Of a DNA stretch of 64,000 nucleotides, positions 5,091-64,000 are shown one piece after another. A program made the translations under genes and the position numbers. Source of the stretch: a virus (Duplodnaviria > Heunggongvirae > Uroviricota > Caudoviricetes); IMG/VR virus record IMGVR_UViG_3300045988_003641, positions 25,067 through 89,066 of that record; one strand, given 5' to 3'. A model generated the notes under the pieces. The model was not told the origin of the DNA, ran no database searches, and saw nothing but the letters and a program-made list of their open reading frames with translations. Positions within the stretch are counted from its first letter, which is position 1. Every line of letters begins with the position of its first letter.

Positions 5091-5101
5091 GGAACACAAT
5101 A

Positions 5102-5479
5102 ATGGCATATCAAGGTTTTACTAAGTTAGGTAACAGAGAACCTCTGAATGATATCATTCTTTGGGAACAGGTTACCCCAACAGGCCACTCTCGTAAAGAG
5201 TATACTCCAAAAGCTTCTACAGAATACCGTGTAGGTGAAGTTCTGAAAGCAGATGGCTCTAAAGTTGCAGCAGGAGAAGAAGCTCAGGCTGATTCTGTAT
5301 GTATCGTTAACTTTTATGCAGACCTGCAACTGTCTTACCACGGTCAGTTGAAAGTGGTTGGTATTTACCGCGACGCAGAACTGAAAGACATGCTTACTCT
5401 TGAGTCAGATGTTGATGCTGATGAAGTCAAGAAAGCACTGGCTGCTAAAGGTATTGATTTCGTACCAACTGGCCTGTAA
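5102..5479 (+). CDS. hypothetical head protein (possible decoration protein)
   Basis: 125 aa ORF between protease/scaffold and major capsid. Confidence 0.3.
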   Translation: MAYQGFTKLGNREPLNDIILWEQVTPTGHSRKEYTPKASTEYRVGEVLKADGSKVAAGEEAQADSVCIVNFYADLQLSYHGQLKVVGIYRDAELKDMLTLESDVDADEVKKALAAKGIDFVPTGL

Positions 5480-7089: not shown

Positions 7090-7571
7090 TGGTTAAAAGG
7101 GTTATTCACCCCGCGAGAGCAAAATTAGTCGGGGCTATGAAGAACTTGCAAACGGCTAATGCTCAAGTTGGGTATTTTCAAGAACAAGGTCAACATAGCT
7201 CTGGTTTTTCTTATCCTGCTTTAATGTATTTACAAGAAGTTATTGGGGTTCCTTCAGCTTCTGGTAAAGTATATCGTAGGTTGTTTGAAATCACTATGAT
7301 GCTAAACAAACAGACCTTGTTAGAGCAGACTAAGAAGAATCTATATAAGCAACTTAGCAGTCTCAACACAGACCCTTCAAATACCTTAGAAGCATTTGCA
7401 AAGAATACTCAAAAGGTAATTAAAAGGGGTTTTGGTAATTCTGCTATCCTCCCTCCTAACGCACCTTCCACAGTCAAGAAAAAAGGCTTTAACGCACCTC
7501 TTGTTGAGACAGGTGACTTAAGAGATAACCTTGCTTATAAAATTTCTACTAAGAAGGGTATTAAAAAATGA
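7089..7571 (+). CDS. hypothetical head-tail joining protein
   Basis: 160 aa, start overlaps upstream stop. Confidence 0.3.
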   Translation: MVKRVIHPARAKLVGAMKNLQTANAQVGYFQEQGQHSSGFSYPALMYLQEVIGVPSASGKVYRRLFEITMMLNKQTLLEQTKKNLYKQLSSLNTDPSNTLEAFAKNTQKVIKRGFGNSAILPPNAPSTVKKKGFNAPLVETGDLRDNLAYKISTKKGIKK

Positions 7572-7969
7572 GACTCTTAAACAGACACAGCTTTGTAGTA
7601 AAGCGTAAAGTCTCTGAAGATGGTTATTATAATGATGATGGTGATTGGGTAGCTTCACAAGATATTGTAGAGGTTAACTGTAAAGGTAATATTCAGCCAT
7701 ATATCAAAGGTTCTGTAAAGAATGGTACACAGATTGCTTTACCGGAAGGTATTAGGCTTACCGATACAAGAATCCTGTATACCACATATAAGCTTAGAAC
7801 TTCAGATGATGTAGAGTGGAATGAGTCTGACATTGTTATGATTGATGGTCATGAGTATGAAGTATTTATGACTATGGATTGGTCACAGCAATTAGCCCAT
7901 ACATCCCATTATGAATATATCATTATTAGAAGGGATAAAATGAATGCAGTTAGAAACAGCAGAACTTGA
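7568..7969 (+). CDS. hypothetical head-tail joining protein
   Basis: 133 aa, translationally coupled. Confidence 0.3.
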   Translation: MRLLNRHSFVVKRKVSEDGYYNDDGDWVASQDIVEVNCKGNIQPYIKGSVKNGTQIALPEGIRLTDTRILYTTYKLRTSDDVEWNESDIVMIDGHEYEVFMTMDWSQQLAHTSHYEYIIIRRDKMNAVRNSRT

Positions 7970-8543
7970 AAAAGGTCTAGTTAGAACCTTAGTGGATGTT
8001 ATTGGTCACAGATTAGCTCGTGATAAAAATAATAGACCAAACGTAATTAGAGCTTACCCTTCTGATAACTCAAATGACAAAGGTTTAAAACCTGACCAGC
8101 CATTTATTACCGTATATTGTCAAGATGCTGCAACACCTTATGGTTGGGTTCTTGATAAGTTTGTTGAAGATGATGTAGCTTGTTACAGAATCGCTTTTCA
8201 GATTCCTGTATTGATTACGGTAAATGGTAAAGGTGCTCACAGTATTATGCTTGAGCTTAAACAAAGATTAGAGATGAGTTCAGTCAGAGATTTAATCCTT
8301 GAAGAAACAGGAGCTACAGTATTAGACACTGGAGCAATCCCTAACGATTACACTTATCTCAATACAGATTTCGAAAATTCTGCGCCTCTTGTTGTAACTC
8401 TTGTAAAAAACTCAGTCCTGAAAGATGAACGTGGAAGTATTATTGAGCGTGTCATTGTTGATGGTGAGTTGGTTTATGAAGAAGGGCAAGAGCCACCAGA
8501 ATATACTATCCATCTAGATGTAGACTCCAAAGGGGTAAAATAA
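7944..8543 (+). CDS. hypothetical tail completion protein
   Basis: 199 aa, immediately upstream of sheath-sized ORF. Confidence 0.3.
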   Translation: MQLETAELEKGLVRTLVDVIGHRLARDKNNRPNVIRAYPSDNSNDKGLKPDQPFITVYCQDAATPYGWVLDKFVEDDVACYRIAFQIPVLITVNGKGAHSIMLELKQRLEMSSVRDLILEETGATVLDTGAIPNDYTYLNTDFENSAPLVVTLVKNSVLKDERGSIIERVIVDGELVYEEGQEPPEYTIHLDVDSKGVK

Positions 8544-9896
8544 ATGTGGAATCCAATTGTTAATGTAGATATTACATTGAACACCGCAGGAACTACAAGA
8601 GAAGGTTTTGGTTTGCCACTATTCTTAGCTTCAACAGATAACTTTGAAGAAAGAGTGCGTGGTTATACTTCCTTAACTGAAGTTGCTGAAGATTTCGATG
8701 AGAATACTGCTGCATATAAGGCTGCTAAACAACTTTGGAGTCAGACTCCTAAAGTAACTCAGCTTTATATTGGTAGACGCGCTATGCAGTACACTGTATC
8801 AATTCCTGATGAGGTTACTGAGAGCACGGACTACTCAATTACTGTAGCTGTCGGTGGGGGAATGTCACAACCATTCCAGTACACCTCACAAGGTGAAGAT
8901 ACTGCCGAGAATGTATTACAACAGTTTAAAACACAGATTGAAGCTGACCAATCAATTAAAGATAAAGTTTCAGTCAATGTTACTGGTAGCAACGGTTCTG
9001 CCACAATGGTCATCTCCAAAGCTGGTGACAATGATTTCGTGAAGGTAACCACTACAGCACAAACTGTGTCTATTGCAAGCACAACTGCTGATACAGCGTC
9101 AACTGCTCTGGCAGCTATTGAAGCTTATTCTACCGACTGGTATTTCATTGCAGCAGAAGACAGAACTCAACAGTTTGTTTTGGCAATGGCTTCTGAGATT
9201 CAGGCTCGTAAGAAAATCTTCTTCACAGCTAACTCTGATGTAGCAGCACTGCAAGGTACAGAATTAAATAGTGCAAATGATGTTCCAGCACAGCTTGCTA
9301 AGAGTATGTATACTCGCACAGTTTGCTTGTGGCATCACACAGCGGCAGAAGATTATCCAGAGATGGCATATATTGCTTATGGCGCTCCATACGATGCAGG
9401 GTCAATTGCTTGGGGTAATGCTCAGTTGACTGGTGTAGCTGCTTCTTTACAGCCAGCTAATAAGAGACCTCTGACAAGCATTCAGAAGTCAGCTTTAGAT
9501 GTACGTCACTGTAACTTTATCGACCTTGATGGTGGTGTTCCAGTGGTTCGTAGAGGGATTACTTCTGGTGGGGAATGGATTGATATCGTCCGTGGTGTTG
9601 ACTGGTTAGAATCAGACCTGAAAACTTCTCTGAGAGACTTGCTAATTAACCAGAAGGGTGGTAAGATTACTTATGATGATACTGGTATTACCCGTATTCG
9701 TCAAGTCATTGAAACCTCTCTACAAAGAGCAGTCAACAGAAACTTCCTGTCATCTTACACAGTTAATGTTCCTAAAGCCTCTCAAGTTGCTTTGGCAGAC
9801 AAGAAAGCTCGTATCCTGAAAGATGTTACCTTCGCAGGTATCTTAGCAGGGGCTATCTTGGATGTTGACTTGAAAGGTACAGTGGCTTACGAATAA
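8544..9896 (+). CDS. tail sheath protein (putative)
   Basis: 450 aa ORF followed by ~150 aa tube-sized ORF and a strong terminator; classic sheath-tube pair. Confidence 0.55.
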   Translation: MWNPIVNVDITLNTAGTTREGFGLPLFLASTDNFEERVRGYTSLTEVAEDFDENTAAYKAAKQLWSQTPKVTQLYIGRRAMQYTVSIPDEVTESTDYSITVAVGGGMSQPFQYTSQGEDTAENVLQQFKTQIEADQSIKDKVSVNVTGSNGSATMVISKAGDNDFVKVTTTAQTVSIASTTADTASTALAAIEAYSTDWYFIAAEDRTQQFVLAMASEIQARKKIFFTANSDVAALQGTELNSANDVPAQLAKSMYTRTVCLWHHTAAEDYPEMAYIAYGAPYDAGSIAWGNAQLTGVAASLQPANKRPLTSIQKSALDVRHCNFIDLDGGVPVVRRGITSGGEWIDIVRGVDWLESDLKTSLRDLLINQKGGKITYDDTGITRIRQVIETSLQRAVNRNFLSSYTVNVPKASQVALADKKARILKDVTFAGILAGAILDVDLKGTVAYE

Positions 9897-9911: not shown

Positions 9912-10358
9912 ATGGCTATGTATCAGCAATATTCCCCTAAAGACGTTGTATGTAGCTGGAATGGTATTGCCATTGAAGGCTTTGCCCCAGACTCATTTTT
10001 ACGTCTACAGAGAACATCACCACTTATCACACCAGTTGTAGGTGCAGGTGGTCAGGTTGCTCTGACAAGAAATGCAGACAAGACAGGTACTATTGAGATT
10101 GAGCTAATGCAGACTTCTCTCTCTAACCAGATGCTTTCTGCAATTCAAGCTAAACAAGACAACATGGAACTTGAAGAAGATATCTCTTCTAACTTCGTAA
10201 TCTACGACCCATCAGGCTCTGTTCTGGCAACTGGTATTAATGCTTGGTTGCAGGAATTACCACAGATTGAACTTGGGCGTGACCAGAACTCTAAAACTTG
10301 GATTTTTGGTTGTGAGAAGCTAGACTACACTTCTACAATTCCAGCGTCAAGTGTTTAA
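9912..10358 (+). CDS. tail tube protein (putative)
   Basis: 148 aa ORF after sheath, followed by terminator. Confidence 0.5.
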   Translation: MAMYQQYSPKDVVCSWNGIAIEGFAPDSFLRLQRTSPLITPVVGAGGQVALTRNADKTGTIEIELMQTSLSNQMLSAIQAKQDNMELEEDISSNFVIYDPSGSVLATGINAWLQELPQIELGRDQNSKTWIFGCEKLDYTSTIPASSV

Positions 10359-11072: not shown

Positions 11073-19142
<8,070 letters not shown>

Positions 19143-31594: not shown

Positions 31595-34290
31595 TGTACC
31601 TCATACCAGCTCTTACCAACCTTACCTGTGCCAGTTACAAGCGTCTCACTCTTCAAACCTAAATTCTTAGATGCCTGACCATACATCCAGTCAGTTATGG
31701 CTTTAACTTCTTGAGTCATACTTTCTGGGCATTCCCAACTGTTTTCATCGTGGTATGCCAGCAAAAGCCTAGCACCGATTGCTGGTTTTCGTCCATTTAA
31801 TTTTGTCAATCCTTCTTCACATGCTCTTCTACAAGCAAGATTAATTGCCTCATTTTGAATCTGAGCCTCTGAACCCATGAGCAAATAATTCAATAACTTA
31901 TGTGGAGATTTACACCACAACCAAGCTCCAGCAACCTTTACAAAACCACCTTTAGAGATTGCAGCAGTCTTACCAAATACCTCTTCAAGTGCCTTTTTAG
32001 TTGCTTTGTAGTCAGCTTCCAAGTCATCTAGCAGCTTTTTAATTTTAGGCAAACGAATAAAGTAAGTCTGTTTAGTCAGCGCACCTTCCTGAGTAGTTGC
32101 AGCTTTAATCGTCTTAGCAAACTTCTCATCACCTGCACCGAACAGCAGTGCATAGATACCATTCTTAGCTTTCTTACGACCCTTGCTAATCTCATGAAGA
32201 AGATTCTCATCCTGAGTAGCTCGACAAGTCAAGATGTCCTGCTCATCGTTCAAGTTAAAGTAAATACTGTTCAGTGTATGTGCATCAGTCCCTGAATAGA
32301 CAACGTACAGGTCATTCTCAGAGTCATAGCGAAGGTACTTATCAATCTCTGGGTTGAGGTACTCATCAAAGTGTTTACAGTAATAGCGTCCATCTTCTTG
32401 ACGAATGAACTCAATTTCTTCTTTACCTTGCGTTACCGCTTTGGTGAAGTCTTTATCACCCATAAAGTTACAAAGAAGAACTAGCTGGGCTGAGTTCATG
32501 TCTACAGAGACAACGTTAGTACCTTCCTCACAAATCCACACTGCCCTCATTGGTTCCCCATAGACAGCAGCACCAGACGGTACGTTTACAATACCATACT
32601 GTGTCATACGTCCAGTTGAAGTACCAAACACCATTGCACCAGCACTAAGGCGACCATCAGGACGAATCTGGTTCAACCAACCTTTTTCATCATCCTTTGA
32701 GTTCTCAATAGTTCTGCGTCGGTGCATCAAAGTGTAGTATTTAGCAATCTTCTGTCCAAGCTCACCTTCAATCGTATCGTAAGATGATTCAGTAAGTTTT
32801 GGTGAAGTACGGATTAAGCAAGGCTCAAGCAAATCTGTGTACTTCTTCACAGACCAGTTATGCTCAATGTACTGGACGCCTTCGTGTTCAACATAACTCA
32901 AACCACACCGCTCAACCATTTCCTGCCACTTAGGATGCTTTGTAATCATCTTTTTATTGTCTTTGAAACGACAAACTTTGACAGGGCGACCATCAGAGTC
33001 TTTCTTGTAGTTCCAGTCATCTGGAATCCAACCAACTGATTTCAAGTAGTCTTTAACAACTGCTACCTGAGTCATACGAGAAACTTCAAACTCAATTGGT
33101 GTATATGGTGCATCAATCAAACCTGTGTAGCGACTTGACTCAAGTTCAAAGTGGTTAACAACGTGGCTGTTATAGTACTTCACAGTTTTGACTGTTTTTA
33201 CTGGCTTCCAGTCTTTGCATTTCTTACCAATCTTTGCGTTCAACTCATTGCAAATTGCACGAGCATCCTTCATTGCTACAAAGCCTTCCTTGTACTCTTC
33301 ACCAGTTACAGAGTTGGTTGGTGTATAGCAATTCCTTTTTTCAATGTTAAAAATCTTTGTAGTTGGCTTACCAAATGGTTTGATTTCGTATGTCTGCATC
33401 TCGCCATTACGTACCTGCTGACGATACTTTGTCTTAGGGTACTTGGTAATTCTTTTCAGTCCATCTGCATGACCAAATGTTTCAACATACTCATTCCAAG
33501 CTTTTGCAAACTCTTCTCCAGTGACTTTACCTTTGGTCTTAATAGTTGGAGGTAGATGTGGTTCAACCTCTGAAGCAAGCTCATTAGTCAACTTGTCAAG
33601 TTCCTTTACATGGAACTCCATAAGCTCTTTATCAGCTTTCCAACCATTGATAGCTTGTTGACTCATCCAGAAAGATGTTTCTTTAGCTCGCATGTAGGTT
33701 TCATAAGTGTCTATGCCACACTTCTTAAGCTTGAGATACTCATTATCAAGTGCCCGTTTAGTTTTGGCGTTAATACGGATATCTTCTACAACACGAGTGA
33801 AGATTTCTGCATTCCACACACCCCAATGTTCAATCTCTGGTTTACGAACACCAACACGAGCACCCCATGCAGCCAAGCCATGAGCACCTTTATAACCCTT
33901 TGGAGTTGGTCTATCCATCCACTGAACACGAGACTGGATAAGAGAATCCTGAAAGAAATTACTCCACGGCTTACACTTTGGATTATCAAAGTTCCATAAA
34001 TCCGGTGCAATGTGATTGAAAACCCACCAGTCATAACCTAGACCATTATGAATGCAAAGACGTTTTGCCTTTAACGCAAACTCAATACCTTCACGTAAGC
34101 CACCCTTAATGTACTTGGTATACTTGTGACCGAGGATAGGCTCATCTGTAAAGACCCATACAGGTGGCTCTTCATCGTCAGATTTATAGTCTGCGAAAGC
34201 CATTACGTGCACTTTAGTGAACTCAAGGAGTAAACCATCAGTTTCTGTATCACCAACTAAATGTAAGTTTTTAAAATCTACGTTTTCCAT
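31591..34290 (-). CDS. DNA polymerase, family A, with 3'-5' exonuclease domain
   Basis: ~900 aa; Exo I motif DTETDGL near N-terminus; start set at internal ATG preceded by AGAGGGAG ribosome-binding site (ORF track gives 34320). Confidence 0.85.
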   Translation of the reverse strand: MENVDFKNLHLVGDTETDGLLLEFTKVHVMAFADYKSDDEEPPVWVFTDEPILGHKYTKYIKGGLREGIEFALKAKRLCIHNGLGYDWWVFNHIAPDLWNFDNPKCKPWSNFFQDSLIQSRVQWMDRPTPKGYKGAHGLAAWGARVGVRKPEIEHWGVWNAEIFTRVVEDIRINAKTKRALDNEYLKLKKCGIDTYETYMRAKETSFWMSQQAINGWKADKELMEFHVKELDKLTNELASEVEPHLPPTIKTKGKVTGEEFAKAWNEYVETFGHADGLKRITKYPKTKYRQQVRNGEMQTYEIKPFGKPTTKIFNIEKRNCYTPTNSVTGEEYKEGFVAMKDARAICNELNAKIGKKCKDWKPVKTVKTVKYYNSHVVNHFELESSRYTGLIDAPYTPIEFEVSRMTQVAVVKDYLKSVGWIPDDWNYKKDSDGRPVKVCRFKDNKKMITKHPKWQEMVERCGLSYVEHEGVQYIEHNWSVKKYTDLLEPCLIRTSPKLTESSYDTIEGELGQKIAKYYTLMHRRRTIENSKDDEKGWLNQIRPDGRLSAGAMVFGTSTGRMTQYGIVNVPSGAAVYGEPMRAVWICEEGTNVVSVDMNSAQLVLLCNFMGDKDFTKAVTQGKEEIEFIRQEDGRYYCKHFDEYLNPEIDKYLRYDSENDLYVVYSGTDAHTLNSIYFNLNDEQDILTCRATQDENLLHEISKGRKKAKNGIYALLFGAGDEKFAKTIKAATTQEGALTKQTYFIRLPKIKKLLDDLEADYKATKKALEEVFGKTAAISKGGFVKVAGAWLWCKSPHKLLNYLLMGSEAQIQNEAINLACRRACEEGLTKLNGRKPAIGARLLLAYHDENSWECPESMTQEVKAITDWMYGQASKNLGLKSETLVTGTGKVGKSWYEVH

Positions 34291-34320
34291 TTTTACTCCC
34301 TCTAAAATCATTAACCTCAT

Positions 34321-34547
34321 ACATTACTGCAAAAAATTATAAAAAGCAAGTTGACAATGCACTTGACAAGGTGTTAATCTTTGCGAAGTGGGTTTTTACT
34401 TAAAAGGTTACTTAACAGTTTAACTATACAGATACTTTAAATCTCTTAAAAGATTATTTAATAGCTTTTAAAAAGCTTTAAAGTATAACGTATAGAATAC
34501 GTTAAGATAAAAGATTAAAACTTAATAGTTACTTAAAAGAGGCTTAC
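34321..34547. promoter_or_regulatory. divergent early promoter region
   Basis: AT-rich 227-bp gap between divergent operons; perfect TATAAT on minus strand (34336-34341); TTGACA hexamers on plus strand (34351, 34364). Confidence 0.45.
34486..34504. promoter_or_regulatory. palindromic candidate operator
   Basis: perfect inverted repeat TAACGTAT-AGA-ATACGTTA, ~45 bp upstream of start codon at 34548. Confidence 0.5.
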
Positions 34548-59564: not shown

Positions 59565-59587
59565 AGGCTGCTTCGGCGGCCTTTTTT
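59565..59587 (+). terminator. rho-independent terminator (TTCG tetraloop)
   Basis: AGGCTGC-TTCG-GCGGCCT then TTTTTT. Confidence 0.6.
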
Positions 59588-59589
59588 AT

Positions 59590-59617
59590 TTGTATTTTGT
59601 GCAGAGTGCTGTATAAT
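59590..59617 (+). promoter_or_regulatory. putative promoter upstream of lysis genes
   Basis: perfect -10 TATAAT (59612-59617), weak -35 TTGTAT 16 bp upstream. Confidence 0.4.
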
Positions 59618-62716: not shown

Positions 62717-62917
62717 ATGGCTGACTTCTGTAAAGACTGTTCTATCGAAATGTTCGGACGTGATACAGGTGACTTAAAAGGTCTTATCACTGAAGATGAC
62801 TTTAAAGCTGGTTATGCAATGCCAGTAATCTGTGAAGGTTGTGGGTGTATCTGGGTAGACCATGAAGGGCAACGTGTAAAACCTTCAGAAGATAAAGAAT
62901 CTTGGGAGAGATGCTAA
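62717..62917 (+). CDS. small cysteine-rich protein
   Basis: 66 aa; CKDC...CEGCGC. Confidence 0.3.
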   Translation: MADFCKDCSIEMFGRDTGDLKGLITEDDFKAGYAMPVICEGCGCIWVDHEGQRVKPSEDKESWERC

Positions 62918-63703
62918 ATGGGTATTGTAAAAATCATCAATGGTGATATCTTTGCTGCATTTGATAAAGGTAAGTTTGACATCATTGGTCATGGTTGTAA
63001 CTGCATGAACCTAATGGGCGCAGGTATCGCTGACAAGATTTCTAAACTTTACCCAAAAGCATATGAGACCGATACAGAAGTTTATCTCTATGCAGGTGGT
63101 ATAGGTCACAAACCCTGTGAGAATTTACTAGGTAATTTCTCTGTAGCACGCTTAAAACAAGGTCGTATAGCTAACCTTTACACTCAGCTTAAGACTGGTA
63201 AAGATGCCCGATACAGTGCTTTAGAGTCATCTTTGAAGCAACTTAACAGATACTGTGAAGTTAATCAGTTGAAGAAAGTTGGTTTACCTATGATTGGTGC
63301 AGGTATCGGTGGACTTGACCCTCAAGCCGTCACAGTTATCATCAATCAGGTGATGAAGAGTGTAGATGTTTATCTATATGTCTATGAAGGAGAGATGTAC
63401 CACAAGTTACTCTCAGGTTGGAAGAACTACTGTGAACCAGAATACTTTGCAGGTGTAGCAGTGTTCACAGATAACGCAGTTACCCTCTTCAGACGAAGAA
63501 AAGGTAAGATACATCAAAGTAACCCTCCGGTTGAAAAGATGTCTCTAAGTAACGCTCTAGTTACCCACCTGTCAAAGAGCAATCACAGAATTGCTGTAAC
63601 ATTTGGTAGTGATGCAGAAGCTTATATCTATGCAAGAACTGATGAGGATATTGAGGCAATCTTCTCTTCACCAGAAGTTACCTTCTTAGACGCAAAGAAC
63701 TAA
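62918..63703 (+). CDS. macro-domain protein (ADP-ribose binding/processing), putative
   Basis: 261 aa; N-terminal INGDIFAA...DIIGHGCNCMNLMGAGIA resembles macro-domain ADP-ribose pocket; C-terminal ~110 aa of unknown function. Confidence 0.5.
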   Translation: MGIVKIINGDIFAAFDKGKFDIIGHGCNCMNLMGAGIADKISKLYPKAYETDTEVYLYAGGIGHKPCENLLGNFSVARLKQGRIANLYTQLKTGKDARYSALESSLKQLNRYCEVNQLKKVGLPMIGAGIGGLDPQAVTVIINQVMKSVDVYLYVYEGEMYHKLLSGWKNYCEPEYFAGVAVFTDNAVTLFRRRKGKIHQSNPPVEKMSLSNALVTHLSKSNHRIAVTFGSDAEAYIYARTDEDIEAIFSSPEVTFLDAKN

Positions 63704-63775
63704 GAAACTCTGTAGGATATTCACAATAGCCTAAGCCTTTCTTATCTGGTAAATTTTTCAGGTAAGGAGGGCTTT

Positions 63776-63955
63776 TTCATTTCAGATTTGTGCAGGTAGA
63801 GTTCTGTAGAGAAATCTATAGAGAAAATTTTGAACTCCAAAGAGAAAATTCATTTTCAAACTGTGCAGGTAATCTCCAAAGAGCTTTTTCATTTTCAAAA
63901 CGTGCAGACCCCGCTCAGGTCGGGCAAGAAAAATCATTTTAGAATTGTGCAGGTA
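63776..63955. repeat. tandem direct repeats TTCATTTTCAAANNGTGCAGGTA (four copies)
   Basis: copies at 63776-63798, 63850-63872, 63888-63907, 63933-63955; CTCCAAAGAG sub-motif also repeated; followed by C-rich tract to window end. Confidence 0.8.
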
Positions 63956-64000
63956 GGTTTTTATAGACAGCCAGCCCAACCCCTCTCCCCCTCTTACTCC

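Follow-up and report, generated by a model that had tools for sequence, protein, structure and literature searches.

The 64,000-nucleotide stretch of phage DNA analysed here, referred to below as the window, belongs to a Felixounavirus and ends in an array of four imperfect direct repeats (modules). Over positions 62900-64000, the window shares 100% identity with Escherichia phage vB_EcoM_ASO1A (MZ726791, designated ASO1A below), whose position 7915 is equivalent to window position 64000, and matches 224 phage records, nearly all of which are Felix-O1-like. According to the annotations of ASO1A and Felix O1 and to the sequence extended beyond the window, the array is located in a non-coding gap of about 520 nucleotides, of which the window contains the first 297 nucleotides; no other long non-coding spacer is present in the early region. 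The gap contains, in order, the stop codon of a macro-domain gene, a terminator, the four modules, a C-rich tract, a ~50-bp conserved block, then AT-rich DNA, and a sigma70 promoter, followed by a stem-loop and ribosome-binding-site cassette and by small early genes. The macro-domain gene (62918-63703, + strand) encodes a protein of 261 amino acids annotated as a 'phosphatase' (Pfam Macro, E = 1e-7, residues 25-141; PHROG 335). It is the last gene of the early block running from rIIA and rIIB to macro. The intrinsic terminator (63733-63779, + strand), retrieved by a terminator scan and annotated in ASO1A, comprises a 17-pair hairpin (63733-63774) and a T-run that doubles as the start of module 1. 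The downstream promoter, TTGACT-17-TAATAT, was identified by a sigma70 scan about 260 bp past the last module (positions 5233-5261 of record L001), and the array as a whole lies approximately 190-400 bp upstream of this strong promoter, which starts the small early gene cluster.

The module spans 27 bp and is present four times in the same orientation (+ strand), with the consensus G-[CTTTT/AAAAT]-TCATTT-N7-GTGCAGG. Modules 1 (GCTTTTTCATTTCAGATTTGTGCAGGT, 63771-63797) and 3 (GCTTTTTCATTTTCAAAACGTGCAGAC, 63883-63909) are of the T-run type, modules 2 (GAAAATTCATTTTCAAACTGTGCAGGT, 63844-63870) and 4 (GAAAAATCATTTTAGAATTGTGCAGGT, 63928-63954) of the A-run type. The pattern TCATTT(N7)GTGCA was found at positions 63777-63794, 63850-63867, 63889-63906, and 63934-63951 of the + strand, corresponding to start-to-start distances of 73, 39, and 45 bp. 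Even when one mismatch was allowed, the 64-kb window contained no further match; all four were in the same orientation and within 175 bp, for a chance expectation of 1.3. The original prediction, made from the window alone, had proposed four irregularly spaced copies of a repeat and a repeated sub-motif, and both were borne out. The exact motif TGTGCAGGTA occurs three times in the window, each time inside the array, the copy in the third module being CGTGCAGACC. The sub-motif CTCCAAAGAG forms the 5' box of modules 2 and 3 (63835-63844 and 63874-63883, + strand) as a direct repeat, and the box of module 2 has the counterparts CTGGCAAG and CTGGAGAG in the genus Kolesnikvirus. The long spacer between modules 1 and 2 (63798-63834, + strand), delineated by its direct-repeat family and by comparison of spacings, contains AGAGAAAT and AGAGAAAATT sub-repeats and is absent from Kolesnikvirus.

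A position weight matrix (PWM) was built from 63 distinct modules of related phages and scanned across an 88-kb proxy of the genome. Modules 1 to 4 scored 44.7, 40.0, 40.3, and 34.6 bits, respectively. The next matches scored 16.4 and 12.0 bits and the remainder at most 2 bits, indicating that the array is unique in the genome. The information content of the module was concentrated in three patches, G, TCATTT, and GTGCAG, spaced by about one helical turn. Since TCATTT and GTGCAG are approximately 12 bp apart, both would be exposed on roughly one face of the helix.

The same layout was detected 3' of the macro gene in four genera of the Ounavirinae: Felixounavirus, Suspvirus (SUSP1 and SUSP2), Mooglevirus (Michonne and Sf14), and Kolesnikvirus (Erwinia phage Hena2 and Salmonella phage SB18). 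In each genus, a terminator, four modules, a C-rich stretch, and a promoter succeed one another, and the array is retained in more than 280 records over the four genera. An alignment of 30 distinct versions of the array from relatives of the phage showed that it was present in all 30 sequences, with four copies except in a Si3-like lineage, which had three, and with a point-mutated unit in one sequence. Module spacing was 73/39/45 bp in Felixounavirus and SUSP2, 75/41/45 bp in Mooglevirus and SUSP1, and 37/37/39 bp in Kolesnikvirus. The module cores were 70-95% identical where the neighbouring gene was 47-73% identical. Between ASO1A and Hena2, the identity was 0.70 for the cores versus 0.06-0.40 for the spacers, 0.47 for the macro gene, and 0.29 for the macro protein. 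Between ASO1A and Michonne, the corresponding values were 0.86, 0.33-0.76, 0.70, and 0.65. In the full 84-kb genome of Hena2, the PWM retrieved four sites at 32-39 bits, all other scores being at most 13 bits.

The alignment columns that were invariant in all 30 sequences clustered in TTTTTCATTT and GTGCA. The positions following GTGCA differed between lineages in a concerted manner: all four modules of Kolesnikvirus ended in GTGCA-TAG or GTGCA-TAA, while three of the four modules of the other three genera ended in GTGCA-GGT, module 3 reading GTGCA-GA or GTGCA-GT. This concerted change fits co-evolution of the sites with a phage-encoded binding protein; were the binder a host factor, it would be expected to differ very little between Escherichia, Salmonella, and Erwinia. 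The homopolymer preceding TCATTT was T5 or A4-5, in the order T, A, T, A in Felixounavirus versus T, T, A, T in Kolesnikvirus. Whichever strand it is on, an A-tract confers a similar shape to DNA, but the resulting RNAs are very different, and the flips between T and A therefore point to recognition at the DNA level.

Comparison of the array by BLAST with 5,426 E. coli genomes gave no match. A two-module pattern had 43 matches in bacterial genomes, none of them in Enterobacterales. An exact-motif scan of viral contigs outside the Ounavirinae retrieved only single chance matches and one giant-virus contig with several widely spaced motifs. No comparable array was detected in contigs carrying a more distant macro-domain gene. 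To judge from these sequence comparisons, the array is an Ounavirinae-specific element under purifying selection. The region was also carried, at 88% identity or more, by records named 'Campylobacter phage A132' and a 'Staphylococcus' phage (probably SA1, cited in the annotation notes of ASO1A), which are probably mislabelled or contaminated entries.

Extension of the sequence past the end of the window, which had been proposed as a check of the original prediction, established that the repeats are located in non-coding DNA. Two open reading frames (ORFs) of the array (63782-63979 on the - strand and 63790-63942 on the + strand) were rejected as genes, as the frame of the modules differed between genera and several frames were open on both strands. 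The spacing changes from 39 to 41 bp and from 73 to 75 bp break every reading frame, and early ORF calls made in this gap of Felix O1 have been dropped from RefSeq. A structured RNA was also rejected: folding of both strands was not unusual (z-scores of -1.0 and +1.37) and, apart from the terminator, which was the only strong fold, no better than that of shuffled sequence, and an Rfam scan of the array with E values up to 10 returned only noise, with no match below E = 1. A CRISPR array (clustered regularly interspaced short palindromic repeats) was rejected because the modules of the window are only 71-82% alike and the gaps between them (12-46 bp) are conserved between phages.

A homopyrimidine, C-rich tract (CCCAACCCCTCTCCCCCTCTTACTCCCCCTCTCCC in full) follows module 4 on the + strand from position 63971 to about 64014, only the part up to 64000 being inside the window. 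The tract noticed in the original prediction is real: in the identical sequence of ASO1A, the G-free run that begins at 63975 continues for 14 nucleotides past the window end. The tract contains 40% C and 13% G, forms a mirror as well as a direct repeat (2 x CTCCCCCTCT), and has a core, CCCTCT(T)AC, common to all four genera. In 12 of the 30 distinct relatives, all Felixounavirus, it is swapped for an unrelated G-rich allele (GGTGGGTGCAGGTGGGGATGTCGCC..., 19-21% C), indicating that it is not required wherever the array occurs. Among the 18 distinct relatives that have the tract, 14, including the phage of the window, have a minus strand matching a G-quadruplex pattern. The tract may be a Rho-loading or boxA-like RNA site or may form a DNA structure. 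The G-rich allele, a segment of about 50 bp after module 4, contains an additional GTGCAGGT half-module. The spacer between modules 3 and 4 is also variable, with CCCCGCTCAGGTCGGG in the window and GAGAAAAATCAGGTCGGG or GATAAAAATCAGGTCGGG in some relatives.

Breaks at or near the C-rich tract recur in several public assemblies of independent origin, and the window itself ends at the same base. The record of EC106 (ON210138) begins 2 nucleotides beyond the window end and lacks the next ~220 bp. One IMG/VR contig ends in ...CTCTTACTCC fused to a Nextera adapter, another stops 40 nucleotides later, and a further contig is chimeric, with unrelated DNA inside the spacer between modules 3 and 4. The breaks look like a weak spot for sequencing or assembly at a tract prone to form G-quadruplexes or triplexes, but may also stem from a fragile site or a nick. 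Just past the window end, in the region 5095-5125 of record L001, a sub-threshold, leftward candidate promoter is found on the minus strand, TTGACT-N17-TA(A/G)nn(G/T). In the G-rich allele, it takes the form TTGACT-N17(...TGG)-TAGCCT and has an extended -10 TG. Although the sequences of the two alleles are unrelated, all 26 non-Kolesnikvirus sequences have retained this candidate at a fixed spacing, and it would transcribe back through the array.

A weaker fifth module was detected in the window at 59577-59617 (+ strand; CCTTTTTTATTTGTATTTTGTGCAGAG; PWM score of 16.4 bits). It overlaps the -35 box and the spacer of a promoter (TTGTAT-N16-TATAAT, 59590-59617) located directly 3' of the rIIB terminator. 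The original prediction had pointed to a related TTTGTGCAG in this promoter, and a GTGCAG is indeed present in its 16-nucleotide spacer, at 59599-59604, within the match to the PWM. In Mooglevirus Michonne, the orthologous site (CCTTTTTTATTTGAAAAATGTGCAGGT) scored 22.5 bits, was located inside TTGAAA-N16-TATAAT, and was the sole extra match above 14 bits in 5.9 kb. The evidence that one protein binds both the array and the fifth module is modest, because the left half of the module resembles ordinary terminator tails of the phage (matches at 61368, 77285, and 72355). Duplication of a terminator-promoter cassette may instead have given rise to the array.

The proteins encoded on either side of the array were compared with Pfam, PHROGs, and PDB. 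The C-terminal ~120 residues of the macro protein (window 63344-63700) had no sequence match in Pfam or PDB and are subfamily-specific, and a single-sequence AlphaFold model of the protein was unusable (predicted local distance difference test, pLDDT, of 34). Among sigma54, sigma32, sigmaE, CRP, Fur, Fis, IHF, OmpR, and DnaA sites and type I restriction sites such as EcoKI, none fitted all four modules when compared by eye. A relaxed DnaA box provided the best fit, at eight of nine positions in Kolesnikvirus and six of nine in Felixounavirus. Expression data are available for Felix O1, in which RNA of 'ORF14' was maximal at 25 min, whereas RNAs of ORF13 (macro) and ORF16 peaked at 5 min (PMC3185647, Table 3). 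ORF3, located downstream of the fifth module, also belongs to the 25-min class (PMC3185647, Table 3). Since RefSeq places ORF13 at 7130-7915 and ORF15 at 8423-8629, ORF14 must lie in the gap that contains the array. The gap is therefore transcribed, with kinetics unlike those of the upstream gene. The paper on the Bas63 knockout library reports no data for this gap.

Together, the uniqueness and the conservation of the repeats lead us to consider it likely that the array serves as a set of protein-binding sites at the DNA level, of the iteron or operator type. The modules would provide four asymmetric, cis-acting sites of about 27 bp in the same orientation for one sequence-specific DNA-binding protein, which is probably encoded by the phage. 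Within this reading, we tentatively propose a role as a transcriptional boundary or operator. The bound protein would form a boundary, roadblock, or operator complex controlling transcription across the junction between the rIIA-to-macro block and the small early gene cluster. The same protein may act at the promoter downstream of rIIB in Felixounavirus and Mooglevirus via the weaker single module. The link to transcription is suggested by the position of the array between a terminator and a conserved promoter, by the overlap of the fifth module with a sigma70 promoter in two genera, by the likeness of the modules to the front half of a promoter, and by the distinct kinetics of the gap RNA. 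Several observations weigh against this proposal. No DNA-binding domain was detected by the Pfam, PHROGs, and PDB searches of the flanking proteins, and the sole annotated regulator, an XRE-type helix-turn-helix protein, is encoded far from the array. Proteins of this type usually bind palindromes. At least 190 bp separate the array from the next promoter, and an arrangement of four asymmetric repeats head to tail is typical of origin iterons. The link to a promoter does not extend to all genera, since no fifth module was found by the PWM in the whole genome of Hena2, and the fifth site could reflect shared ancestry of terminator-promoter cassettes rather than function, because the left half of the module resembles terminator tails. 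Finally, the reverse transcription PCR (RT-PCR) performed with Felix O1 was not strand-specific and only semi-quantitative.

A replication origin of the iteron type, in which the modules would bind a phage initiator that melts or remodels nearby DNA for loading of the T7-like primase-helicase, corresponds to the initiator sites listed in the original prediction and is only slightly less probable than the boundary or operator role. It has in its favour the very features of the array: four asymmetric head-to-tail repeats in a single cluster per genome, kept in the more than 280 records of the four genera, with a concerted change of the flank in Kolesnikvirus. The promoter and the AT-rich stretch 130 bp downstream could aid melting, a 40-bp AT-rich segment at about 64092 belonging to the 0.3% of the genome with the lowest stability (over 100 bp, its rank drops to the top 2.8%). 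In iteron plasmids, the initiator frequently recognises a partial promoter site as well as the iterons, which could explain the fifth module. However, no initiator is annotated and the flanking ORFs gave no match to a DNA-binding family, although many ORFs of the phage are of unknown function. The replisome is T7-like (family A polymerase, gp4-like primase/helicase, exonuclease, and ligase), and T7 starts replication from transcripts rather than iterons. The spacing of the modules is out of helical phase and differs between genera, and the adjoining C-rich tract is replaced in the 12 relatives carrying the unrelated allele. Analysis of duplex stability and of AA/TT periodicity in the whole genome did not single out the array, the least stable and most curved DNA being located elsewhere, in the terminal-repeat gap described below and at 34.2-34.5 kb of the window. 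The terminal-repeat gap contains the least stable DNA of the genome, and the strongest AA/TT periodicity was observed about 1 kb upstream of it (ASO1A ~13.9-14.9 kb). The intergenic region at approximately 34200-34500, which separates the divergent blocks of the DNA polymerase (- strand) and of the primase/helicase (+ strand), ranks among the least stable and most periodically A/T-phased DNA of the window and coincides with a minimum of the cumulative GC skew; it is an alternative candidate for an origin. An RNA-level signal is unlikely. A read-through or antisense RNA would then carry four linear motifs for an RNA-binding protein or nuclease, with the C-rich tract serving as a rut or boxA-like site. 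The detection of gap RNA by RT-PCR, the C-rich and G-poor composition of the tract, and the conservation of the minus-strand candidate promoter are consistent with such a signal, as is the apparent similarity of the conserved core of the tract, CCCTCTTAC, to the boxA/rutA sequence of lambda nutR, CGCTCTTAC. On the other hand, the T5/A5 flips would alter the RNA drastically, neither a conserved nor an unusually stable fold nor an Rfam match was obtained, the array is located 3' of a strong terminator, the tract is absent in 12 of the 30 relatives, and the promoter scan did not call the minus-strand candidate.

The clustered promoters envisaged in the original prediction, i.e. four tandem starts for the host RNA polymerase, possibly with a phage activator replacing recognition of the -35 box as MotA does in T4, are quite unlikely. 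The modules do resemble the upstream half of the genuine promoter cassette downstream of rIIB, with which they share a T-run, TT(G/T)(T/A)A(T/A), and a TGTGCAG in the spacer. Some copies are followed by TAnnnT (TAGAGT, TAATCT, and TAGGTT), and 'ORF14' RNA peaks at the middle time point. This option was nevertheless not supported, since no sigma70 promoter was called in the array on either strand. At the spacing of the genuine promoter (TGTGCAG + 7 nucleotides + TATAAT), the modules carry the unrelated hexamers TCTGTA, CCAAAG, TCAGGT, and TTTATA, and this position is conserved neither between modules nor between genera. TAnnnT is missing from module 3 and from most copies of Suspvirus, Mooglevirus, and Kolesnikvirus, the motif is absent upstream of all other genes, and a spacing of 37-45 bp would make the promoters overlap. 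We regard as very unlikely that the array is a non-functional relic of tandem duplications of a terminator tail and promoter front. This explanation would account for the matches of the left half-module to terminator tails of the phage, for the overlap of module 1 with the T-run of a real terminator, and for the similarity of module 1 to the rIIB cassette (15 of 21 positions upstream of GTGCAG, which is itself identical). It does not fit cores that are 62-100% identical, with the same copy number and order, versus 29% for the neighbouring protein and 6-40% for the spacers, nor the concentration of invariant columns in the two conserved patches. The original prediction also listed binding sites for terminase (pac) and genome-end repeats. 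The likeness of three or four sites about 40 bp apart to lambda cosB and the stop of several public assemblies at or near the C-rich tract speak for such sites, which are extremely unlikely and already largely refuted. The terminal repeat of Pr103Blw, determined with PhageTerm, has 581 bp (PMC8303462) and maps to ASO1A 15120-15710, 7.2-8 kb downstream of the array. The ends of UAB_Phi87, determined by Bal31 digestion and run-off sequencing, include a 608-bp repeat and generate terminal SpeI fragments of 4322 and 2819 bp (PMC4837284); these ends fall in the homologous gap, the reported fragment sum of 7141 bp comparing with 7176 bp predicted from the SpeI sites that flank it. In both relatives, the terminal repeat is thus 6.4-8 kb from the array, contradicting the two options. 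About 7.3 kb beyond the array, the record of Hena2 opens with a region in which TGTTAA-type repeats are abundant. One of the assembly stops runs into a Nextera adapter and another is chimeric, which argues for a technical cause. The array is about 7.3-8 kb (~9% of the genome) from the right physical end both in Felixounavirus, according to the Pr103Blw mapping, and in Hena2, and the interval is full of small early ORFs. The terminal-repeat gap (ASO1A 15120-16300, including the Pr103Blw repeat) lies between convergent gene blocks and is packed with short repeats of the CTTGTTAA/TGTTAAGA type, and the ends of the Hena2 record carry analogous GTTAACA and TTCTAAG repeats.

The cassette located 3' of the downstream sigma70 promoter is a separate repeat family. 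It consists of a stem-loop of about 57 nucleotides and a ribosome binding site (ACATCAACGGGGAGGGAATGACCTTCCCCAC...CCTAAACTGGAGA; positions 5264-5324 of record L001) and is found 5' of many small early genes. In ASO1A, copies are located at 10255, 11306, 12866, 13432, 14028, and 14358, and partial copies at 8976, 11633, and 11969. The many extra places per genome retrieved by BLAST are due to these nine downstream recurrences, whole or partial, which are not part of the array. ASO1A differs from Felix O1 by an additional small gene inserted at the first cassette.

The array can be compared with several known systems. The iteron systems considered were lambda ori (four iterons), P1, F, pSC101, and T4 oriE with RepEA/RepEB. 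Like iteron origins, the array consists of asymmetric direct repeats in one orientation at a single non-coding locus, with the copy number of lambda, A-tracts in or beside the units, concerted change between lineages, and possibly an extra site at a promoter. It differs from them by units of 27 bp spaced by 37-75 bp, as opposed to helically phased iterons of approximately 18-22 bp, by the lack of an adjacent annotated initiator gene or of an outstanding AT-rich unwinding element, and by the lack of a known origin-binding protein in the phage. Like lambda OR/OL, the P1 C1 operators (asymmetric, 17 bp), and the MotA boxes of T4, the array offers several sites near a terminator/promoter junction. 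As for the C1 operators and MotA boxes, the site is asymmetric, and one module overlaps the -35 box and spacer of a sigma70 promoter. Unlike operator arrays of phages, the four sites are clustered at a distance of at least 190 bp from the nearest promoter, and each genome has at most one extra site. Promoter-stem-loop cassettes (PeSL) were reportedly described by Arbiol et al. in 2010 in early regions of T4-type phages, in which they are thought to drive gene shuffling. The early cluster downstream of the array is likewise composed of repeated promoter, stem-loop, and ribosome-binding-site cassettes, and the module looks like a terminator tail joined to a promoter front. In contrast, PeSLs are dispersed, one per gene, and include complete promoters, whereas the array comprises four truncated tandem units devoid of a -10 box and of a gene.

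The injection-stop region of T5 (iss) likewise consists of conserved repeats that are not translated, is better conserved than the ORFs around it, and borders about 8 kb of small early genes near a genome end (Davison, bioRxiv 10.1101/866236), as does the array. On the other strand, the Kolesnikvirus modules read CTATGCACA, which matches eight of the nine positions of the DnaA-box consensus TTWTNCACA (quoted in bioRxiv 10.1101/866236). The T5 region differs in being part of a 10-kb terminal repeat and in being dominated by inverted repeats and paired DnaA boxes, as opposed to the direct repeats of the array. Moreover, the Felixounavirus modules match the DnaA box at only the six positions mentioned above, and no two-step DNA entry is known for Felix O1. 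We consider it most unlikely that the array is a functional analogue of the T5 region, i.e. a DNA-entry checkpoint at the inner border of the first-entering ~8-kb block of small host-takeover genes in a myovirus with short terminal repeats. At such a checkpoint, translocation of the genome would be arrested by a bound protein, of the host or the phage, pending the synthesis of early proteins. In kind, the array is a new and well-conserved case of the familiar direct-repeat binding array of phage control regions and not a new kind of system.

Felix O1 is a classic typing phage of Salmonella, and biocontrol and phage therapy make wide use of its relatives. Our searches of the literature retrieved no description of the array and nothing relevant on its motif, on transcription start sites, or on a replication origin of Felix O1. 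The genome paper of Felix O1 lists direct repeats of at least 24 bp, not this imperfect array, and states that the timing of transcription and the passage past the many terminators are not known. No other non-coding element found in the early region is as conserved as the array, which offers a concrete target of 200 bp in the search for the missing regulator or origin. For genome engineering, the seemingly 'empty' gap that contains the array should not be treated as a neutral insertion site.

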